Assembly (NCBI RefSeq): GCF_001447785.1 | Contig: NW_015168670.1 | Span: forward strand, 203,513-267,512 | Origin: Gekko japonicus | Taxonomy: Eukaryota | Length of the DNA: 64,000 nucleotides | Reading direction: 5' to 3' | In this document: one piece after another, positions 36,396-47,800 of the stretch | Position numbering within the stretch: position 1 is the first letter of the stretch | Layout of the letters: each line of letters starts with the position of its first letter | Notes under the pieces: generated by a model | What the model saw: only the letters and a program-made list of their open reading frames with translations | What the model was told of the DNA's origin: nothing | The model's database searches: none | Translations under genes and position numbers: made by a program

Positions 36396-37854
36396 AAGGG
36401 TTGTTTGTGAGACTGTCCCTGAATAGGGTTCAGAAAGGGCAGCTGGTCAAGAATGCAGTGATGGTGTCCTCACAATGGAACTCCCTCTCTAAAGGAGATC
36501 TGGTTGGCTGGCTTCTTTTAATACTTCCTAAGGTCATTTCTCTCAGCCTATCATACTTCACAGGGTTGTTGTGAAGATCAAGTTTGTAGGGAAGAACCAC
36601 ATAAACCACCCAGAGATTATTATAGGAAGGAAGCTGAAACCTCACCTTGGCCTCCTTTACACTATCTGTCTGCCTGTCTCTGTTTTATATCCCCCCTCCC
36701 AATAACTGCAAAAAACAAGATACTACTACTACTACTGATCTCACAGATGGTTGTTATTTAGATAATCATACATGAAGGACTTTAGCAAAATTGCTTATTA
36801 GATGGGAACTTATGAAGCAAGCATTAGGGATGGCAAGGGAAATTTTTGAAAAATGTGGAGCAAGTGGGCACTGATAATAAATTAATATAGTATGTGTCAG
36901 CTAGGCCTTTCTTGAGCCCTGGCTGCCATGGGAGTGGGGGTGACTCTGAAATGTTTGGTTTCATTTCTGCTGTGTCTTCTGTGTTTCGATTATCTCTGTA
37001 TGACCTTCAGTGCCTGGTTTATTTATTTATTTATTGTTTATATTTGTATCCCGCCTTGCCGAGCACGCTGGCTCAAGGCGGCTAACAAAGTTAAAATTAC
37101 ATAAACAATACAGGGATTAAAACAATGAAAAATACAGTACCAAGTTAAAAACAGCAACAATTCACAAATAAAACTGACAGATGATGGCGATAATCCAAAT
37201 CACATCCAATGGTAGGAGTAGCATCCAGCGAAGTCTCAGGCCAGAAGATGTTCCAGGGCACATTCTTCAGTGGCAGCCCGTAATTGAAAGCCTGGCGGAA
37301 GAGCTCTGTTTTACAGGCCCTGCAGAATTGTAAAAGGTCCCGCAGGGCCCTGATGTTCTCCGGGAGCTCATTCCACCAGTATGGGGCTGCCATTGAAAAA
37401 GCCCTGGTTCTGGTGATGTTCAGCCTGACTTCTTTCGGACCAGGGAGGGTCAAATGATGTTGTGACCCTGACCTCAGTGCTCTCTGGGGCACATGTGGGG
37501 AAAGGCAGTCCTTCAAGTAGGCAGGCCCCTGACCATATAGGGCTTTAAAGGTTAAAAACAGCACCTTGAACCGAATCCAGTACGCTATAGGCAGCCAGTG
37601 CAGTGTCCTCAGCACAGGCTGGATGTGGTCCTGTATCGAGAGACCCATCAACAGCCTGGCTGCGGCATTCTGCACTAGCTGCAGCCTCCGGATCTGGGAC
37701 AAGGGCAGCCCCATGTAGAGAGCGTTGCAGTAGTCTAATCTCAAGGTGACCATTACGTGGATCACTGTTGCTAGGAAATTGAGTCCGAGGAAGGGAACCA
37801 GCTGCCTAATCAGCCGTAGGTGGTAGAAGGCCACCTTGGCAGTGGCTGCTACCT

Positions 37855-38015
37855 NNNNNNNNNNNNNNNNNNNNNNNNNNNNNNNNNNNNNNNNNNNNNN
37901 NNNNNNNNNNNNNNNNNNNNNNNNNNNNNNNNNNNNNNNNNNNNNNNNNNNNNNNNNNNNNNNNNNNNNNNNNNNNNNNNNNNNNNNNNNNNNNNNNNNN
38001 NNNNNNNNNNNNNNN
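37855..38015. other. Assembly gap at a SINE fragment (38016-~38088) nested in the L2
   Basis: Run of N flanked by a Squam3-like tail sequence. Confidence 0.95.
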
Positions 38016-39102
38016 TCAGTACCCAAGGGAGTCTCAGAGCGGCTTACAAACTCCTTTCCCTTCCCTTCCCCACAACAGACAGCCTGTGAGGAGGCATCGA
38101 GGAGCACTCCCAGACTTCTAACCCTTGGCGCTGGCACCAGTGGCGCCCCACCAAAGGTTGGTAATGGGATCCCTACCCCCGACCCGCTCTGACTTGAGCA
38201 CAGGACCTCTGTCTTCGTTGGATTCAATTTCAATCGACTCAATCTAAGCCAGCCTGCCACATCCTGAAGCGCCCACTCCAGGTCATCTGGGCTGGAGTCG
38301 GACTGGCCGTCCAACAACAGATACAGCTGGGTGTCATCAGCGTACTGATGACACCCCAGCCCGTGCCTCCGGGCAATATGGGCAAGGGGGCACATGTAGA
38401 TGTTAACAACATCGGGGATAGCACCATCCCATGACCCGGCTGGAAGCCAGACTGGAATGGGTCCAGCATGGAAGTGTCATCCATGAAGCTCTGCAACTGA
38501 ATCACCGCCGCTCTCTCCAATACTTTGCCCAAATAGGGCAAACTGGAAATCGGCCGATAGTTGGCCAATTCAGCCGGATGCAGTGATGGTTTTTTCAGGA
38601 GAGGGCAGACCATCACTTCCTTGAGTGCCCCCGGGAACAGCCCCTCATTGAAGGACTTGTTGATAACGTCCCTGAGGACACCTCGTAACCCTTCATGACC
38701 AGCTTTTATAAGCCATGAAGGGCACGGATCAAGGCTGCACATGGTTGGGCATACTATTGAGAGGAATCTGTTGACTTCCTCAAGACTGAGTAGACTGAAA
38801 TAATCCAGAATGGAACTAGAAGACGTGCATGGAGCCTCAAGTTCGCTCACTGTCTCAACTGTGGCTGGGAGATTGCGGCGGAGCAGCAGGACTTTATCTG
38901 CGAAATAGCTTGCAAAAGCCTCACAGCCTATATCCAATTCCCTATTGGTTGGCCTGCCCTGTGGTAGCTCTGCTAATGACTGAATAGTCCTAAATAATTG
39001 TGCCGGGCATGAGCTAGCAGATGCAACCGCAGCCTCATAGAATTGTCCCTTCGTGGCTTTGATTGCCATCTCATAGGATCTCATAAACGTCCTATATGAT
39101 GC

Positions 39103-39676
39103 TGTAACGATTTCATGTTTATTTGTGTGTGTGTCTTTAAAAGTTTGGTTGGTATGGCTGTGATGATACTCTAGAGTGCTGGAAACAGGCAAGTGATATG
39201 ATTGGTGAGTGACAGAGAGGGGGAGGGGTTTTGGAATGGATGCTGTGTGGATGATTTGAATGTCTATCAGGAGTGTGTGCCATGACAGTGTGAGAGAGAA
39301 AGGAGCTTATATCTGTAAAGTGAATCTACAGTTCTTAAAAAGAGTCAAAGTTACAAAGAGTGTGATACAGTTGACCTAAAGTACTTACAAATACCTATTT
39401 CCAAAACAGTTACAGTTTAAACAACTTCTTACTCTGTTCTTCAAATAAATCCTTTTTATTTAAGTTTATCCCAGAAGCCTGATCCATTTTTCCTCAGGAA
39501 ACACATAGTTCCTCGAAAGCCCAGACCCTGGGTCACAATACCAAAACCAGAAGAAGAAAGTATAAAGGTTTGGAAAGCCTAAAATTTCCTGGTGGCAGCC
39601 AGATTACCCAGTAGAGCAAAATATAAAGAACGGTTTTAAAGTAAAACCAGACCTCCCCAGAGAAGAGGTCACCACA
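39103..39676 (+). mobile_element. Solo LTR (574 bp) nested in the L2
   Basis: TGTAAC...CACCACA ends; perfect 5-bp TSD GATGC; internal AATAAA. Confidence 0.85.
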
Positions 39677-41074
39677 GATGCCCTTGATGCTTCATCGTGG
39701 GCGCGCCGCCACCGTCTTTCTGGTTGTCTAAGCCCTCATTACATTTGCCACAGCTCCTCAGTGAACCAAGGAGCTCGCTTAGAGCGGGGGCACAGAGGGT
39801 GTCGGGGGCGATCTCATTGATGGCTGCCGAAAGCCGGCCATGCGAGTCCTCGACAAGCTCATCTAACAAGCTGCCGGGGGACATGGGATCCTGCAGAGCC
39901 ATCTGGAATCGCTGAGAGTCCATTTGGCTCTGCGGGTGAGCCAAAATGTGCTCGCCGCCCAAACGGGGTCGGAGGGACACATTCACACAGGCCTTCAGGG
40001 CATGGTGGTCCAACCATGGCACCGCCGAGGCAGTAATCTGGTCCACTGTAACCCCTGTCACGAAGATCGTCGAGCGTATGCCCGGCCTGGTATGTGGGGG
40101 CCGTTACATATTGGGTAAGTCCTAGTGCTGCCATGGATGACACCAAGTCCATCACCGCTACAGAGGCTGCATCATCGACATGGACACTGAAGTCACCCAA
40201 GACTATCAGCCTAGGGAACTCCAATGCCCAGCCCGACCCGGCCTCAACCAGAGATGGCAGGCTATCGGCTGGTGCGTTAGTACACCAACCAGATAGCCAA
40301 ACTCTCCCCGGCTTCCCACACCAAGCCCGAGCACTCAATGCCCGCAAGCAACAGTGGGAGTGCCCTGTAGGAGTAAGCCTCCCGAATGAACAGCGCCACT
40401 CCCCCCCCCGCCCCTCAGTCTGGGATTGGTGAAGGACCGCAAACCCGGGTGGAACCAATTGGGAGAGAGCTACTGTCTCCCCGTCTCGCACACAGGTTTC
40501 AGTCACATCACAAAGAGCTGAGGAGTATGGGATGTTTTGCAGGGAAGAGATTGAAGTAGGATTACCATATTTTGAAAAGACAAAAAAGAGGACATATTTC
40601 CCAACTGACTACTTCAAACAAGTGATCACTATGACAAATCTCATTTTAAATACCCCTACTATTTAAGCTGTGATAATTGCTACTAACTAGGAATATTTCT
40701 AACCTTCCAACCCAAAAGAGCATATTTTCATCAGTTTTTTTAAAAGAGCCCAAAGGAGGATGGACACAAAAAAAGAGAGGACATCTGGTAACCCTGGTGT
40801 AATTTTTCTCTTGGGAAAAGGAGCCCGTTACTTTGGCGGGCTTCTACCTGATCCCTGATTGGCCCTGGGCCATCAGGGGGCCTGCTTGAATAATGTAAAT
40901 CTATTTGCTGCGTGCACTTTTCTTCAGTTCTAATACAAAATGGTTAAGATATCTGCATACTCTCAATGTCTCAATAAACTTTACTTCTTTGAATGAACGC
41001 TGTTGGGAACTTATTGCTGCAGGAGTCTGACAAAGTGTTAGAACTCCCCATAGTTCCCGGACTTGTACCCTACC

Positions 41075-42347
41075 ATGGTTGACAACGATACCGGGGAAGT
41101 ACCAGTAGACCACCGTAGTGACGAGTGGAGAGGGGAGATCCCTTGGGAGATCCTGGCAGTCATGGGCGAATCTCCCATCGTGGCCAGAGGAGAGCTGGGT
41201 GCTTACTCCCAACCCGAGACTGATCACCTACAGCCGGCGATATGGCAGTACCTATGCCAAGGATGTCACTTGAGCAGGGGTGACCAATGAAGTGCAACTG
41301 GAACATGTATGGTGCAAGCTCCAGGGCCAGACAAAGGAGCTGAGGTGCGAGATGCACGAAATGATGCTGGACTTCCCTTGACTCATCGCAACCGCGGTGC
41401 AGCACGAAATGTGGGGATACTGGACAGATGGAGGGGCCCAGGGATGTGACCAAGTGCAGGTGCCTGCACAAGACCAGGCAGGTCAGGTCCCTACAGAACC
41501 TCCTGCGATGCTGGGAAGGGTTCCAGGAGAGCAACCACCTGCTGTTCCCCCAAGACCACTGGTGCCCACCGCACCCGTGCCAGATCATCACCAAGAGCTG
41601 CTGGACGCCACCTTTGATGGCAAACTGGACAAGCTGGCCTTCTTTTTGCTGCAAGTGTGCAAATTCTTACATGACTGGGGACCAACATTCCCGACAGATG
41701 AGCACCGTGTGGATTATATTGGGGCACGGCTGAGAGACCGGGCTGCTGGTTTGTCAAGCTCCACAATATCAGAGGTCCTGAGCTGCGGGATGTGACGGCC
41801 TTCATGTGGGCACTGTGTTGTCAGTACAAGGACCCCATGGAGCTGGAGAAGGCCAGAACAAAGTTAAGGGCCCTGAAGCAAGGGAACAAGACAGTGCAGG
41901 AGTTCTCTGACGAGTTCAAGATGTATGCCACCAAGGTGCATGGGTGGCCAAAGGAGGTACTGATAGAGCAATACTAGTCAGGCCTCAATCATCAACTGCC
42001 TCAACATGATCAAGATGTATATGCCGAAATTGACCCCAAAGACGCTGGGGAGTGAGGTGAGAAGCCAGCGACCCAAACTAAAAGACACCATGAGAGAATG
42101 GTGGATGAAGCAAGGGGTGTGCCTATGCTGCAGGGAGCCGGGCCCCTACGCCGCCTTCTGCCCAGCTACTCTGCCTCCCACAGGGGGAAAAGCACCTGAG
42201 AGATGTGGTTCCGAGACACCAGCAAAGTCTGGCGGAGTGCGGCCCAAGCAGCCAAGGGCCCTCCAGCTGAACACAGTCCCAGACAGGGCTTCCTCCAGTA
42301 GTGATGATGCGGTCCAGCTGGCGGGAAAAGGATGGGACCTGCTGTAA
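41075..42347 (+). pseudogene. Disrupted gag of the Sushi-like element (PEG10/RTL-family-like capsid, degenerate CCHC)
   Basis: ACCATGG start; TFDGKLDKLAFFLLQV, LRALKQGNKTVQEF, GVCLCCREPGPYAAFCP; frameshifts and stops. Confidence 0.85.
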
Positions 42348-42713
42348 GGGGATGTGACCAAGTGGGGAAAAGGATGGGACCTGCTGTAAGGGGCACCACC
42401 CAGCAGGTCCAAAAGCAGTTGGCGTCGTGTTCGGTGAGCAGTACCCCCCTTTGTTTTTCGTGACTGTGTCAGTAATTAACCCCGAAATGGGCACCCAAGT
42501 GAGGGTGAGGGCCTTAATAGACTCCGGGTGTGCTAGAGACTTAATAAGCCCGGCCATTGTGACGGGGTTGGGGGTTGCTGTACAAGCTCTACCAGAGCCA
42601 CTTGTCTTTACCCAAATGGATGGCTCCCCTATGAAGGAGGCGTGTAAATACCAGACTGTGCCAGTGACTGTGGGAACGGGGCCTCACTGGGAACAATGGC
42701 CCTTTATTATTAA

Positions 42714-43793
42714 CTAGGAGTAATGCTCGTTGTGGGAAGAAATACAACGAGATCTAGAAGGAAGCTCCAGATGACTGTCCCGACTGTGGCTGGTGGTGCG
42801 TGTTGGGGCGGCAGAAGGAAGCGAAAAATGGAGGGAGGCAAGCCATGTTTCTTTCCTTCTGCTTAGCTATAAGGCAGGGCTGTCTCAAGTCATTTTGCTG
42901 CCCCAAGGGGGTAGAATGGGAAGGCAGCCTCATGGTTACAGGAATGGTTCTCTCCACCTTTGACATATTTTTGAGGGGGAGGGGGGTGTTATGCAGTGGC
43001 AGCTAAGGTAGAAAAGCATATCCTCCAGTGCCATGTTTTCTGGGTTCAAAGGGTCTGGAAAGTGGTACCATAGCCGATTACATGGTTGACAACTCTGGGT
43101 TGGAACATACCTGTAGATTTGAGGGGTAGAGCCAGGGGAGGGGAGGGTTTGGGGTGGGGAGGAATCTCAGCAGGGTATAATGCCATAGAGTCCACTGCCC
43201 AAAGCCGCAATTGTCTCCAGGAGAACTGATCTGGGTCATCTGGACATCAGTTTTAATAGCTGAAGCCCTGACTGCTACGTCACATTGGCTGTCATACAGG
43301 GGCCATCTCAGCAGGATATAAGGACACAGAGTCCACCATTTTCTCCAGGGGAACTGATCTCTGCCATCTGGAAAGCAGTTGTAATTCTGAGTGATCTTTA
43401 GCCCTCACCTGGAGATTAGCAACAATGGTTTCCCTCAACAGGCACTAAGGGGAAATGTATTTTACCTCAGAACACATTTTATCTCAGAACAGCAACAGCA
43501 AACTGTTTAGAATGTTAGAGGGAAAGACCAATGAGGCCGCATATGCAAACGACCTCTGTGTTCCGAGGCAAAGGTGAATCAGGCCACATATGCAAATGAC
43601 CTCTGTGTTCTGACTGGCTGTGGGGGGGAGAGGAACAGCAAACTGTTTAGAATGTTGGAGGCAGGACTCAGGCAAAGCAGCCAGTGGATAGGGAGACCCT
43701 CTGAATGACAGATCAGAGAGCAATCTGATTTTAAAGCATGTTGGAATGTTCAGGGGAGTCCATGACCCAAATAGAATTATATATATCGGAGGA
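42714..43793 (-). mobile_element. Complete non-autonomous Helitron (1080 bp), copy 3
   Basis: 5' TC, 3' CTAG, perfect CTCGTTGT/ACAACGAG subterminal hairpin, inserted between A and T with no TSD; removal restores the protease reading frame. Confidence 0.9.
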
Positions 43794-44372
43794 TCCCATG
43801 GCCAGGTTTTCAATGATGCTGGGAAGCCCCTGGTTGTGGGACCACGACCCCTACATACAGTGGAGTGTGGGTGCCCTTCATTTCCTGGATTCCAAATGCG
43901 AGGGACATGAATGGAAAAAGGAGTGGGGGAATCTGTCTGCTGCCCTCCCCGAACAGGCGTGCCTGGCCCAGGAGGAGCTTGATCTAATCCCAGAAGAGTA
44001 TCAGGATTTAACCCGGGTGTCCGAGGAAAATGAGGCCAATGAACTTCCCCACCACCACACCGCTGATTGTGCTATAGAGATCTTAACGGGGCATAAAATG
44101 CCAAAAGGGAAACTGTATGCTATGAGCCCAGCCGAGAAAGAGGAGCGGAGGAAGTTCATTGATAAAAACCTGGCTCAGGGTTTCATCCGGCCAGCCTCTT
44201 CACCATATGTGGCTCCCGTTCTCTTCCGGAAAAAGAAGGATGGGGGACTGAGACTGTGTACAGATTACAGGCGCTCAAATGCAGTATCCACCATGAATGC
44301 ATACCCCCTCCTATTAATCAAAGACCTCATGGCTGAGGCCTCAAGGGGCAAAGTGTTCACCAAACTGGATTT

Positions 44373-44895
44373 AAACATAAGAACATAAGAGATGCCAATG
44401 TTGGATCAGGCCAAAGGCCCATCCAGTCCAACACTCTGTATCCCACAGTGGCCAGAAATACCAGTGCCATCAGGAGGTCCACCAGTGGGGCCAGGACATT
44501 AGAAGCCCTCCCACTGTTGACCCCCCCCTATTAATCAAATTATAGACGGAGCTCTTCCACCAGGCTTTTATGTAGGGGCCGCCGCTTCCATCACCACCAA
44601 TGAGGGAAAGACCATCAAGTTGGAGTGCCCTTGATAGCCCGGCGCTATCTATATGACAGCAAGATCAGCCATTTAGCTTGGACTACTATTACCAGGATGA
44701 TTTATCATGCAGACCATCTTGGAATCTAAAGCACCTTATTATTACTATTAGTATGTTGGTTGTGATTTGTGATTTTATTGGATTTTATAAATTTTATGTA
44801 TGTGCTTATGCCTTTGTAAGCCGCCCTGAGCCCGCTTGCGGGGTAGGGCGGGGTAGAAATACCTGAATAAATAAATAAATAAATAAATAAATAAA
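44373..44895. mobile_element. CR1 3' end (minus, ~44373-44527) plus L2 3' end (plus, ~44540-44895) inserted in RT
   Basis: acataagaacataaga tail; TELFHQAF and (TAAA)n tail; flanked by a 46-bp direct repeat of RT sequence. Confidence 0.85.
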
Positions 44896-47800
44896 TCATG
44901 GCTGAGGCCTCAAGGGGCAAAGTGTTCACCAAACTGGATTTGAGAGATGCTTATTTCCGTATGCGCACGAAACGGCATTCAACACACCATTGAGACAGTT
45001 TGAATACTTGGCCATGCCGTTTGGATTGGCGGGAGCCCCAGGGGTCTTTATGAACTTGATTAATGAAGTGTTGCACAAGCATCTGTTCCAAGGGGTCCTA
45101 GTTTATCTTGATGATACCCTAATTTATTCACCTGATAAGGCTTCTCACGTGACTTTGGTGCAGGAGGTATTAGAGACCCTATATGAACACCGGTTGTTCA
45201 CCAAACTTTCAAACCGTGAGTTCCACAAAAGTGAGGTGGATTTTCTGGGCTACCGCATATCTGGAGAGGGTTTGGTGATAGACCTACACCAGGTTGCAGA
45301 TGCGTTGGGCTGGGAGGCTCCTCACACCCGGAGACAACTCCCATCCTTCTTAGGATTTGCAGATTTTTACTGCCCCTTCATCCCCAATTTTGCTTAAGTG
45401 AGTCTACCCCTCACAGACTTGCTAAAGACTAAGGGGAAGGGGCAGGACAGCGCTGAGTCAGGGGCTAAGTTGAATTGGGCCCCGGAATGCTAACAAGCGT
45501 TTGATAAATTGTTTACCTCTGAGCCCATTTTACATCACCCCAATAAAAATAAAATGTTTGTGCTTCAAGTCAATGCCTCTGACATCGCCATGGGGGGCAA
45601 TCTTGCAGAAGGGAGATGATGGTAAACTCCATCCCCTGGCGTATGTGTCAAAGAAATTTAATTATACTGAATGCAATTGGGTGGTTTGGGATAAAGAGGC
45701 GGCTGCAATCAAGCTTGGTGGCATTGGTTAGAGGGGGCCAGGGAGCCTTTTGAGGTATGGACAGATCATAAAAACTTGGAAGCATTGCACACACCCCGAA
45801 AGCTCAACACCAAGCAACTCCAGTGGGCGGAGTTTTTCTCCAAGTTTCATTTCACCCTCCAGCACCTCCCTGGAAAGTTGAACTTCATCACTGACGCCTT
45901 GTCACGCCTCCCCCAGCATGCCAGTCAAAGGGAGGAGGTGGTAGACTCTATGCTCACGCCCTCCCAGCTAGGTGGAGCAGTGGTGATGCAGAGTTGCGCT
46001 GCAGCTGAGAAGCGGGGGGGAGGAGGGTGCCATGGGTTGCTAACTTTAAAGAAGCACTTACAGAGGCAGACAGGGCAGAAATTGCTAAAGTCTCTTCCCT
46101 CCGGCAAAATCCAGATTGGGGGGGGGCAGACTCTGTACCACATGCTCTGCGGGATGAGGTGTTGTATTTTGGGCATGAATCCAAACTGGCTGGATATTAT
46201 GGATATTTAAAGATGCCACACCTCCTTCAATGCCAGTTTTGGTGGCCACATATGCATGCTGATATTTCACAATACGTGGGCTCATGCCAGACTTGTTTGA
46301 TGGGGGAAAGATGGCCTGGAAAGCCCCTGGGTACTTTGTGACCTTTGGAAACCCCTAGTCGCTCCTGGGAAGTCATTTCCATAGACTTTATTACTGATCT
46401 GCCACCCAGTAAACGGAATACTGTGATCTGGGTTGTGGTGGATTTTCTAAGCTGGCTCATTTCATCCCATGTAAACAACTGCCAAATGCCAACCACCAAA
46501 ACCCTGGCTAAATTGTTCATGCACCATGTTGTGAGATTGCATTCAGTGCCTAGCAAAATAATATGCGACAGAGGAGCCCAGTTCGCTGCCAAATTTTGGA
46601 AGGAACTCGTACAGGTTTTGGATATTATGAGAGGGCAGAACAGTGCCCATCACCCAGAGACTGATGGATAAACTGAACGTATCAATCAGATAGTTGAGCA
46701 ATTCTTGCACTGCTTTACCAACTACCAGCAGGATAATTGGACTGAATTGTTACCTTATGCGGAATACGGTTACAATAATTCAGTGCATAGCTCCACTGGA
46801 CTGTCCCCTTTCAAAGCTATGCATGGATATGAGGGCGCCCCTTTGCCCACTATAGACACACCGGATCCCAGCCCTGGTGATCTCCAGACTTGGTGGCTAG
46901 GCTTAAAGGACCAATGGGCTGTCATCCAAAAGACTCTTGACAAAGCCAAAGTAGATTACAAAGCCCATGCCGATAAAGGGCGGGCCCGAGTGGGATTCGC
47001 AACCTGGGGACTCTGTGTATTTGTCTACTAAACACTTGAAAGGGTTCCAAGCCCAAACAGAAGTTGGGTTAGAAATATGTTGGTCCTTTTACAGTAATAT
47101 GCAAAATGGGGGAGGTTGCTGTTGAACTTAAACTGCCTAAATCTCATAAAGATGTGCATCCTGTAGTTCATTTCAGTCTGCTGAAACGGGACCCAGGTCT
47201 GAACAAGTGGAGACCTCGACCTCCAGCCCCTCCACCTCTGATGATGAATGGTGAACCACACCAAGAGATGGAAGAAATTCTGGACTCGAAACTTAAGCAT
47301 GGCCACCTTTACTATCTAATAAAGCGGAAATACTTTGACCCTTCTCATAATGAATGGGGGCGTGCTTTTCACAAAATGTATCCAACTAAACGTGGTGGGT
47401 GAAGTCTTGGGGGGGGGCAGAATGTCAGCTAGGCCTTTCTTGAGCCCTGGTTGCCATGGGAGTGGGGGTGACTATGGAATGTTTGGTTTCATTTCTGCTG
47501 TGTCTTCTGTGTTTCTATTATCTCTGTATGACCTTCAGTGTCTGGTGTAATCTTTCTCTTGAGAAAAGTAGCTGTTACTCTGGCGGGCTTCTACCTGATC
47601 CTTGGTTGGCCCTGGACCATCAGGGGGCCTACTTGAATAATGTATATCTGTTTGCTGCGTGGCCTTTTCTTCAGTTCTAACATGAAATGGTTAAGATATC
47701 TGCATACGCTCAATGTCTCAATAAACTTTACTTCTTTGAATGAAAGCTGTTGGGAACCGATTGCTGCAGGAGTCTGACAGTATGCATGGGTACATATTGA

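Follow-up and report, generated by a model that had tools for sequence, protein, structure and literature searches.

How an LTR retrotransposon that carries no recognizable tRNA primer-binding site (PBS) began its reverse transcription is the question raised by this locus, a decayed Ty3/gypsy chromovirus-type element that spans positions 36895–47779 of the 64,000-nucleotide stretch of Gekko japonicus DNA analysed here (the window) and is flanked by a 5-bp target duplication, GTATG. An earlier note on this DNA had proposed that the family primed itself in the manner of Tf1, in which the initial 11 bases in the RNA pair with the PBS and RNase H cleaves between bases 11 and 12 (PMC7175516). Our analyses support this proposal through conservation within the family, the absence of TGG and the covariation of primer and PBS, the last of these being the most powerful test. 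It is very probable that the family, like Tf1, began reverse transcription from the 11 nt predicted to open its own RNA. The self-priming mechanism itself is already known and the present case is a further member of a known group: self-priming is described as a common feature of Tf1/sushi elements (PMC10085805 and its preprint), as implicated from fungi to vertebrates (PMC4600332), and as cited for yeast and vertebrates and predicted for plant lineages (PMC6317226). These three papers contain the proposal for the vertebrate Tf1/Sushi group to which the earlier note had appealed.

The stretch GTGTTAGAACT, on which the question centres, belongs to the R/U5/PBS part of the element, whose main features are the following:

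36890–36894, no strand: left target-site duplication GTATG; an identical 5-mer lies at 47780–47784
36895–37019, plus strand: 5' LTR piece 1 (5' part of U3, start TGTCAGC), 95% identical to 3' LTR positions 47423–47546
37019–40793, minus strand: nested insertion splitting the 5' LTR, an antisense LINE-like fragment with a (TTTA)n end and one N run
40794–41032, plus strand: 5' LTR piece 2 (remaining U3, R and U5; end ...TGACA), 91% identical to 47542–47779
41075–42347, plus strand: gag with frameshifts and stops (ORF list; PF03732, E 3.4e-9, in 41702–41974)
42358–47402, plus strand: broken pol (protease, RT, RNase H, integrase, Tf2-type SH3 and a weak chromodomain; Pfam)
47409–47420, plus strand: polypurine tract (from the sequence), then a 2-nt spacer
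47423–47779, plus strand: 3' LTR of 357 bp, TG...CA, with its own copy of the 11-mer at 47673–47683
47780–47784, no strand: right target-site duplication GTATG

The split of the 5' LTR, with its first 125 bp at 36895–37019, and the GTATG duplication were overlooked in the earlier note; a 5-bp duplication is likewise found in 19 of the 24 sister elements with a callable start. The insertion in the 5' LTR is 3.77 kb long, shows a short duplication of LTR sequence at both junctions and contains an open reading frame (38242–39306) whose match to RVT_1 is weak (E 2.5e-5, below the cut-off). Stops, frameshifts and three nested insertions interrupt the copy as a whole, and its two LTRs differ at 25 of 362 aligned positions. 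Repeat insertions in pol, at ~42715–43800 and ~44373–44897, both match other repeats in the window. The latter, located in RT, ends in TAAA repeats and is flanked by a ~44-bp duplication (44315–44372 and 44884–44941) that is unusually long for a target duplication.

The domain order gag-PR-RT-RH-IN-SH3-chromo (Pfam) is that of gypsy elements, all domains being broken, and the closest solved relatives of the RT are those of Ty3. The best RT relatives come from geckos and snakes, followed by wall lizard, fish and fungi, a host range that would fit a squamate host and the Tf1/sushi group. The chromodomain (PF00385) of the window copy has an E value of 0.0022, below the cut-off; it is absent from the single frame tested of the nearest copy (L130), clear in a distant sister (L141, E 1e-12) and present in the RT relatives at 51–57% identity. 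Judged by domain content and the host range of its RT relatives, the element fits a placement in the Tf1/sushi group.

At its downstream boundary the 5' LTR ends in ...GGAGTCTGACA (...TGACA) at 41032, and is followed by AA and by the 11-mer that occupies the place of a PBS:

41033–41034, plus strand: 2-nt spacer from LTR end to PBS; an offset of 2 is the matching rule, and its letters vary among families
41035–41045, plus strand: primer-binding site GTGTTAGAACT, complementary to the element's own predicted R start
40926–40936, plus strand: predicted self-primer, AGTTCTAATAC in this copy, the first 11 nt of the predicted transcript

The complementarity claimed for this site was verified at both coordinates: AGTTCTAATAC at 40926–40936 and AGTTCTAACAT at 47673–47683 are each 1 mismatch away from the reverse complement of GTGTTAGAACT, and both mismatches still give G-U pairs. 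A match with at most 1 mismatch arises in a shuffled 357-nt LTR in 0.17% of 20,000 shuffles. Since 5 unrelated matches of equal quality to the PBS are present in the whole window (both strands), the position of the match outweighs the match itself.

The same junction bears on priming by a tRNA. As stated earlier, no TGG-type primer site follows the 5' LTR; the first TGG is located at 41076, 44 nt past the LTR, and was rejected as a PBS for being too distant from the LTR end. TGG within 8 nt of the LTR end is found in 0 of the 62 elements analysed, and therefore no tRNA 3' end can match the PBS; such a match had been named in the earlier note as an outcome that would refute self-priming. A different possibility is that a tRNA half or an internal tRNA fragment primes and that the match to the LTR is incidental. 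Half-tRNA priming is known in some copia lineages (PMC6317226), and the tRNA sample available for comparison (an Rfam search with 63 candidates scored and 30 loci examined, most ARAGORN calls being tRNA-derived SINE heads) covered six true-looking isotypes only (viz. Lys, Ser, Ile, Leu, Met, and Cys). The best match to the PBS among the sampled tRNA-like genes, six true isotypes included, has 3 mismatches of 11, and each of the 14 different PBS sequences described below would need its own fragment in addition to its match to its own LTR; we regard priming by such a fragment as scarcely credible. As a separate observation, most of the tRNA-like matches in this genome (L040–L060) are tRNA-derived SINE heads that often occur in tandem with a spacing of ~138 bp.

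Copies of the window's own family retain the complementarity, whose loss the earlier note had named as another refuting outcome. In the 30 loci that make up the own-family set, out of 40 matches to the R-U5-PBS stretch, the perfect 11-mer AGTTCTAACAC is present in 16 LTRs, and 9 further LTRs differ from it only by a C>T change at position 11. The next base is G in all 11 copies that carry this T, and the change thus has the pattern of CpG decay. A PBS-like junction is found in 20 of the 30 loci, of which 14 have the exact AA plus 11-mer; the remaining ten resemble 3' or solo LTRs, or have an end that is not aligned.

Across sister families the complementarity recurs at a fixed offset of 2 nt, again with TGG absent, and the two strands covary. 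Sister elements were sampled at 80 + 40 loci from 150 SH3_Tf2-1 matches and 150 gag matches in the same genome, preference being given to long open frames, with further copies of one young family avoided, and the 11-mer starting 2 nt past the LTR end was compared with the last 400 nt of either LTR. The 80 loci of the first batch yielded 52 repeat pairs, of which 8 were dropped (3 were not LTRs, 2 fell short of the LTR end, and 3, viz. L173, L187, and L192, had sequence other than a PBS after the LTR end and would have counted as misses), so that 45 elements including the window were tested, five of them with LTR ends placed by hand. A perfect match between PBS and LTR was observed in 31 of these 45 elements and a match with at most 1 mismatch in 39; these counts do not represent independent events, since the families share ancestry. 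At the same threshold, host flanks gave 0/39 and leader 11-mers 0/315, and perfect pairing between non-cognate partners was seen in 1 of 492 combinations, the single case being the window PBS against a copy of the window's own family. The last 40 loci, which were held out, gave 24 pairs, 17 of which had an automatically called end; here 10/17 matched perfectly and 13/17 with at most 1 mismatch, against controls of 0/17 and 1/17, and among the seven uncalled pairs, three were read by hand and all were perfect. Misses by at least 2 mismatches (6/45 in the first batch and 4/17 in the held-out batch) include several elements with a short LTR overlap or a disrupted junction.

In this one genome 12 distinct perfect pairs of 11-mers and two pairs of 10-mers were found, the PBS being complementary in each case to the LTR of the same element. 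Within the 11-mer pairs 8 of the 11 columns vary and do so always in a Watson-Crick manner, so the covariation asked for in the earlier note is indeed present over 12 distinct types. The pair types occupy separate branches of a DNA tree of the integrase region (43 rows, nine of them under half filled, L183 and L194 having no match), and the two 10-mer pairs belong to a distant clade. Among close relatives, L154 and L155 are sisters on this tree, the end branch of L154 being the longer, and a difference between them at a single PBS position is accompanied by one at the LTR position that pairs with it; this paired difference indicates that coupled change occurs between close relatives. One element (L158) has a spacer of 4 nt past the LTR end, in place of the usual 2 nt, and a 12-nt pairing with one mismatch.

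The distant chromovirus clade (L141, L142, L163, L146, L131, and L091–L120) has 700-bp LTRs and a pairing of only 10 nt. Its LTR partner is located 230–320 nt before the LTR end, and AATAAA/ATTAAA is lacking after the partner in three representatives. One family of this clade is very young, with LTRs that are 99.6–100% identical and >100 equal-scoring gag matches, and its PBS match is perfect in 28 of the 29 junctions found. Compensatory variants of primer and PBS were seen neither inside the window's family nor in these 29 junctions (from 30 loci of the young family), and the direction of primer/PBS correction is hence unreadable within those two families.

If the LTR partner of the PBS is a primer of the Tf1 kind, it should be located at the start of the transcript. 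The features that bear on this are as follows:

40894–40901, plus strand: TATA-like box ~30 nt upstream of the predicted +1, a 6/7 match to TATAWAW at -32
40973–40978, plus strand: AATAAA poly(A) signal in R, partly paired in the predicted 5' leader fold
41046, plus strand: C opposite the predicted m7G cap; C in 51/52 elements and 34/35 distinct contexts

The TATA-like and Initiator-like context reported earlier is present in all its parts (TGTAAAT at 40894, TGTATAT in the 3' LTR, and the start context TTC|AGT). Among 20 family representatives the highest A+T fraction, 0.93, is located at -30..-26, the base directly before the LTR partner (-1) is a pyrimidine, C or T, in 52/52 elements, and AATAAA lies at +38..+48 in 17/17 representatives of the 11-mer group. 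This layout suggests a TATA/initiator promoter at the U3/R border, with the partner of the PBS as the predicted 5' end of the transcript. Three raw RNA-seq runs (unstranded, carrying the same species label and from one study), which were mapped to the young sister element and to window positions 40791–41390, were dominated by LTR read-through and had no pile-up of read starts at the predicted +1 of either the window family or the young sister. Start pile-ups occurred only at L141:3249 (5/25; the predicted +1 is 3347) and at 40793, which is the insertion junction, and a dip in coverage at 40891–40930 coincides with private differences of the window copy.

These observations also bear on the source of the primer. 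Self-priming could be real with a primer supplied by the 3' R copy or by another RNA molecule instead of by the molecule's own capped 5' end. The 11-mer is present in both LTRs, for which reason the DNA sequence alone cannot tell the source, and the transcript start at 40926 is a predicted one. Such a source is nevertheless very improbable, for the complementarity ends at a pyrimidine-purine step ~30 nt past the TATA-like peak, whereas U3 would lie directly upstream of a primer cut from the R copy in the 3' LTR, and nothing would make the pairing stop at +1. In addition, the next PBS base is the nearly invariant C listed above, yet position -1 of the LTR is never G, a combination that fits a cap. 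Retroviral reverse transcriptases can read the cap as G, although no account of this was found among the literature matches listed, and a fixed C past the PBS could follow from the same behaviour here; equally, this C may be kept for the U5 hairpin described below. It is found in the distant clade with 10-nt pairing too, and the base after it is C in 38/52 elements, the region being C-rich and the families related.

Self-priming is also consistent with the predicted folding of the leader. In the fold of the +1-to-PBS RNA, which the earlier note had recommended, the 11-mer is predicted to pair with the PBS in the minimum-energy structure, with a probability of 0.97 in the window, and the probability of this pairing is at least 0.9 in 19 of 20 folds, even though the folding energy of the window leader by itself is not unusual (z -1.06). 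The predicted leader consists of the 11-mer on the PBS, 5–8 unpaired bases and then a stem that reaches the LTR end (15/17 representatives), and the first arm of this stem in the window is:

40943–40957, plus strand: left arm of the inner stem, predicted to pair with the U5 end at 41019–41032

This inner stem joins the U5 end to a part of the LTR located downstream of the primer. It is found in the minimum-energy fold of the same proportion of representatives (15/17), and its statistical support is modest: the mean z is -1.1, and cognate pairing reaches -10.8 kcal/mol compared with -8.9 kcal/mol for non-cognate pairing. As for the Tf1 pretzel's third duplex, formed by the LTR and sequence 3' of the PBS, it is unsupported here (mean z -0.3 and +0.27) under energy models that treat crossing pairs poorly, and the element is accordingly classed here as Tf1-like in working, without the full pretzel. 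A candidate for this duplex, GGGAACT in U5 with AGTTCCC after the PBS, scored no better than shuffles and is not general.

In most families the poly(A) signal is located inside the predicted stem of the 5' leader, an arrangement that recalls the poly(A) hairpin of retroviruses. The U5 end is also predicted to form a rival hairpin with the PBS; in the window (41022–41047) its energy is -12.4 kcal/mol (p 0.017 vs shuffles) and its predicted probability reaches 0.75 when the first 11 nt are blocked. It has p<0.05 in 10/17 representatives of the 11-mer group and is absent in the 10-mer clade, and its family specificity is weak (-8.6 vs -7.8). Judged from these models, the hairpin may be a switch by which the PBS is hidden.

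The extent of this folding lends some plausibility to a purely structural role for the 11-mer pairing, viz. sequestration of the 5' end for the control of packaging, translation or polyadenylation, with some other primer being used: the whole R-U5 is predicted to form a long rod, and the U5 end offers the PBS another possible partner (p<0.05 in 10/17). The paired 11-mer, however, sits exactly where minus-strand synthesis starts, 2 nt past the CA, in all families, and no alternative primer site is present at that place. This makes a purely structural role very unlikely, slightly more so than a primer from the 3' R copy.

For self-priming from the 5' end, the following course can be proposed. 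RNA polymerase II would start at A 40926, and the 5' 11-mer would fold back onto the PBS, closing the long R-U5 stem. By analogy to Tf1, the RNase H of the element would cut after nucleotide 11, and the RT would then extend the cut 3' end through the 2-nt spacer into U5. Later, plus-strand synthesis would copy the primer and rewrite the PBS from it, which would keep the strands in step as families drift. Copying of the primer into plus-strand DNA would carry primer changes to the PBS, and we infer that this is why many pairs stay perfect; in Tf1, the 3' end of about half of the cDNA carries the PBS copied as DNA (PMC11042837).

A more far-reaching version of this scheme is put forward tentatively and is, in our estimation, rather doubtful. 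According to it, the PBS would be rewritten in every cycle from the capped self-primer, the m7G cap being read as G and leaving the fixed C; this correction would allow a joint drift of primer and PBS (14 pairs in one genome), independent of tRNA and out of reach of targeting by tRNA fragments, and the competing U5-PBS hairpin would be a switch keeping the cap protected up to packaging. Some novelty attaches to two of these leads, the C opposite the cap and the competing hairpin.

The closest systems described are Tf1 and Tf2 of Schizosaccharomyces pombe, for which self-priming is established by experiment, and Tj1, Tosmo, and Tcry1, for which it is predicted. The gecko family shares with Tf1/Tf2 the Ty3/gypsy chromovirus layout, a PBS of 11 nt that is complementary to the 11 nt predicted to begin the RNA, and a predicted stem in which the U5 end pairs with the LTR downstream of the primer (PMC7175516, PMC10085805). 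Unlike them it has a vertebrate host, no third pretzel duplex was found, its start and cleavage are predicted ones, and one gecko sister clade has a 10-nt pairing and an R-U5 of 230–320 nt. By its domains and the hosts of its RT relatives it would belong to the same group as the vertebrate Tf1/sushi elements (sushi-ichi and relatives; Butler et al., 2001, as represented in citing papers). Self-priming has also been predicted for plant chromoviruses of the Tcn1 clade and for TAR copia elements (Neumann et al., 2019, PMC6317226), and the gecko family falls within the definition used there, viz. complementarity of at least 10 bp starting 0–5 bp past the 5' LTR. Those elements differ in their hosts, and in the portions of that paper available to us the prediction is made per element, without a covariation test; its supplements list predicted self-primers for each element and may include vertebrate ones. 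Among the literature matches listed (mostly open-access; best 30 of 1,708 without 'self-prim'), neither self-priming in reptile elements nor compensatory change in self-primers was found.

In the portions of these sources that we consulted, experimental proof of self-priming comes from fission yeast, and elsewhere it is described as implicated or predicted. The 14 matched primer/PBS pairs in one amniote genome constitute a natural compensatory-mutagenesis series, and hence a strong vertebrate case made from sequence alone. Self-primed mobility would hinge on the exact choice of start site, as it does for Tf2, where this choice decides whether the primer gets made (PMC5341516). Targeting by 3' tRNA fragments has been described for mammalian ERVs (PMC7472051), and elements without a tRNA site would escape it. 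The proposed course makes predictions at the level of single bases (a start at +1, cleavage following +11 or +10, and a C opposite the cap) that can be tested by ordinary 5'-end sequencing, for which young families with nearly identical LTRs will be helpful. One further likeness to the fission-yeast elements concerns the TCTT at 47405–47408, directly before the polypurine tract, a motif reported as typical of those elements (PMC10085805); since sister families show other T-rich runs at this place, the likeness is probably a coincidence.
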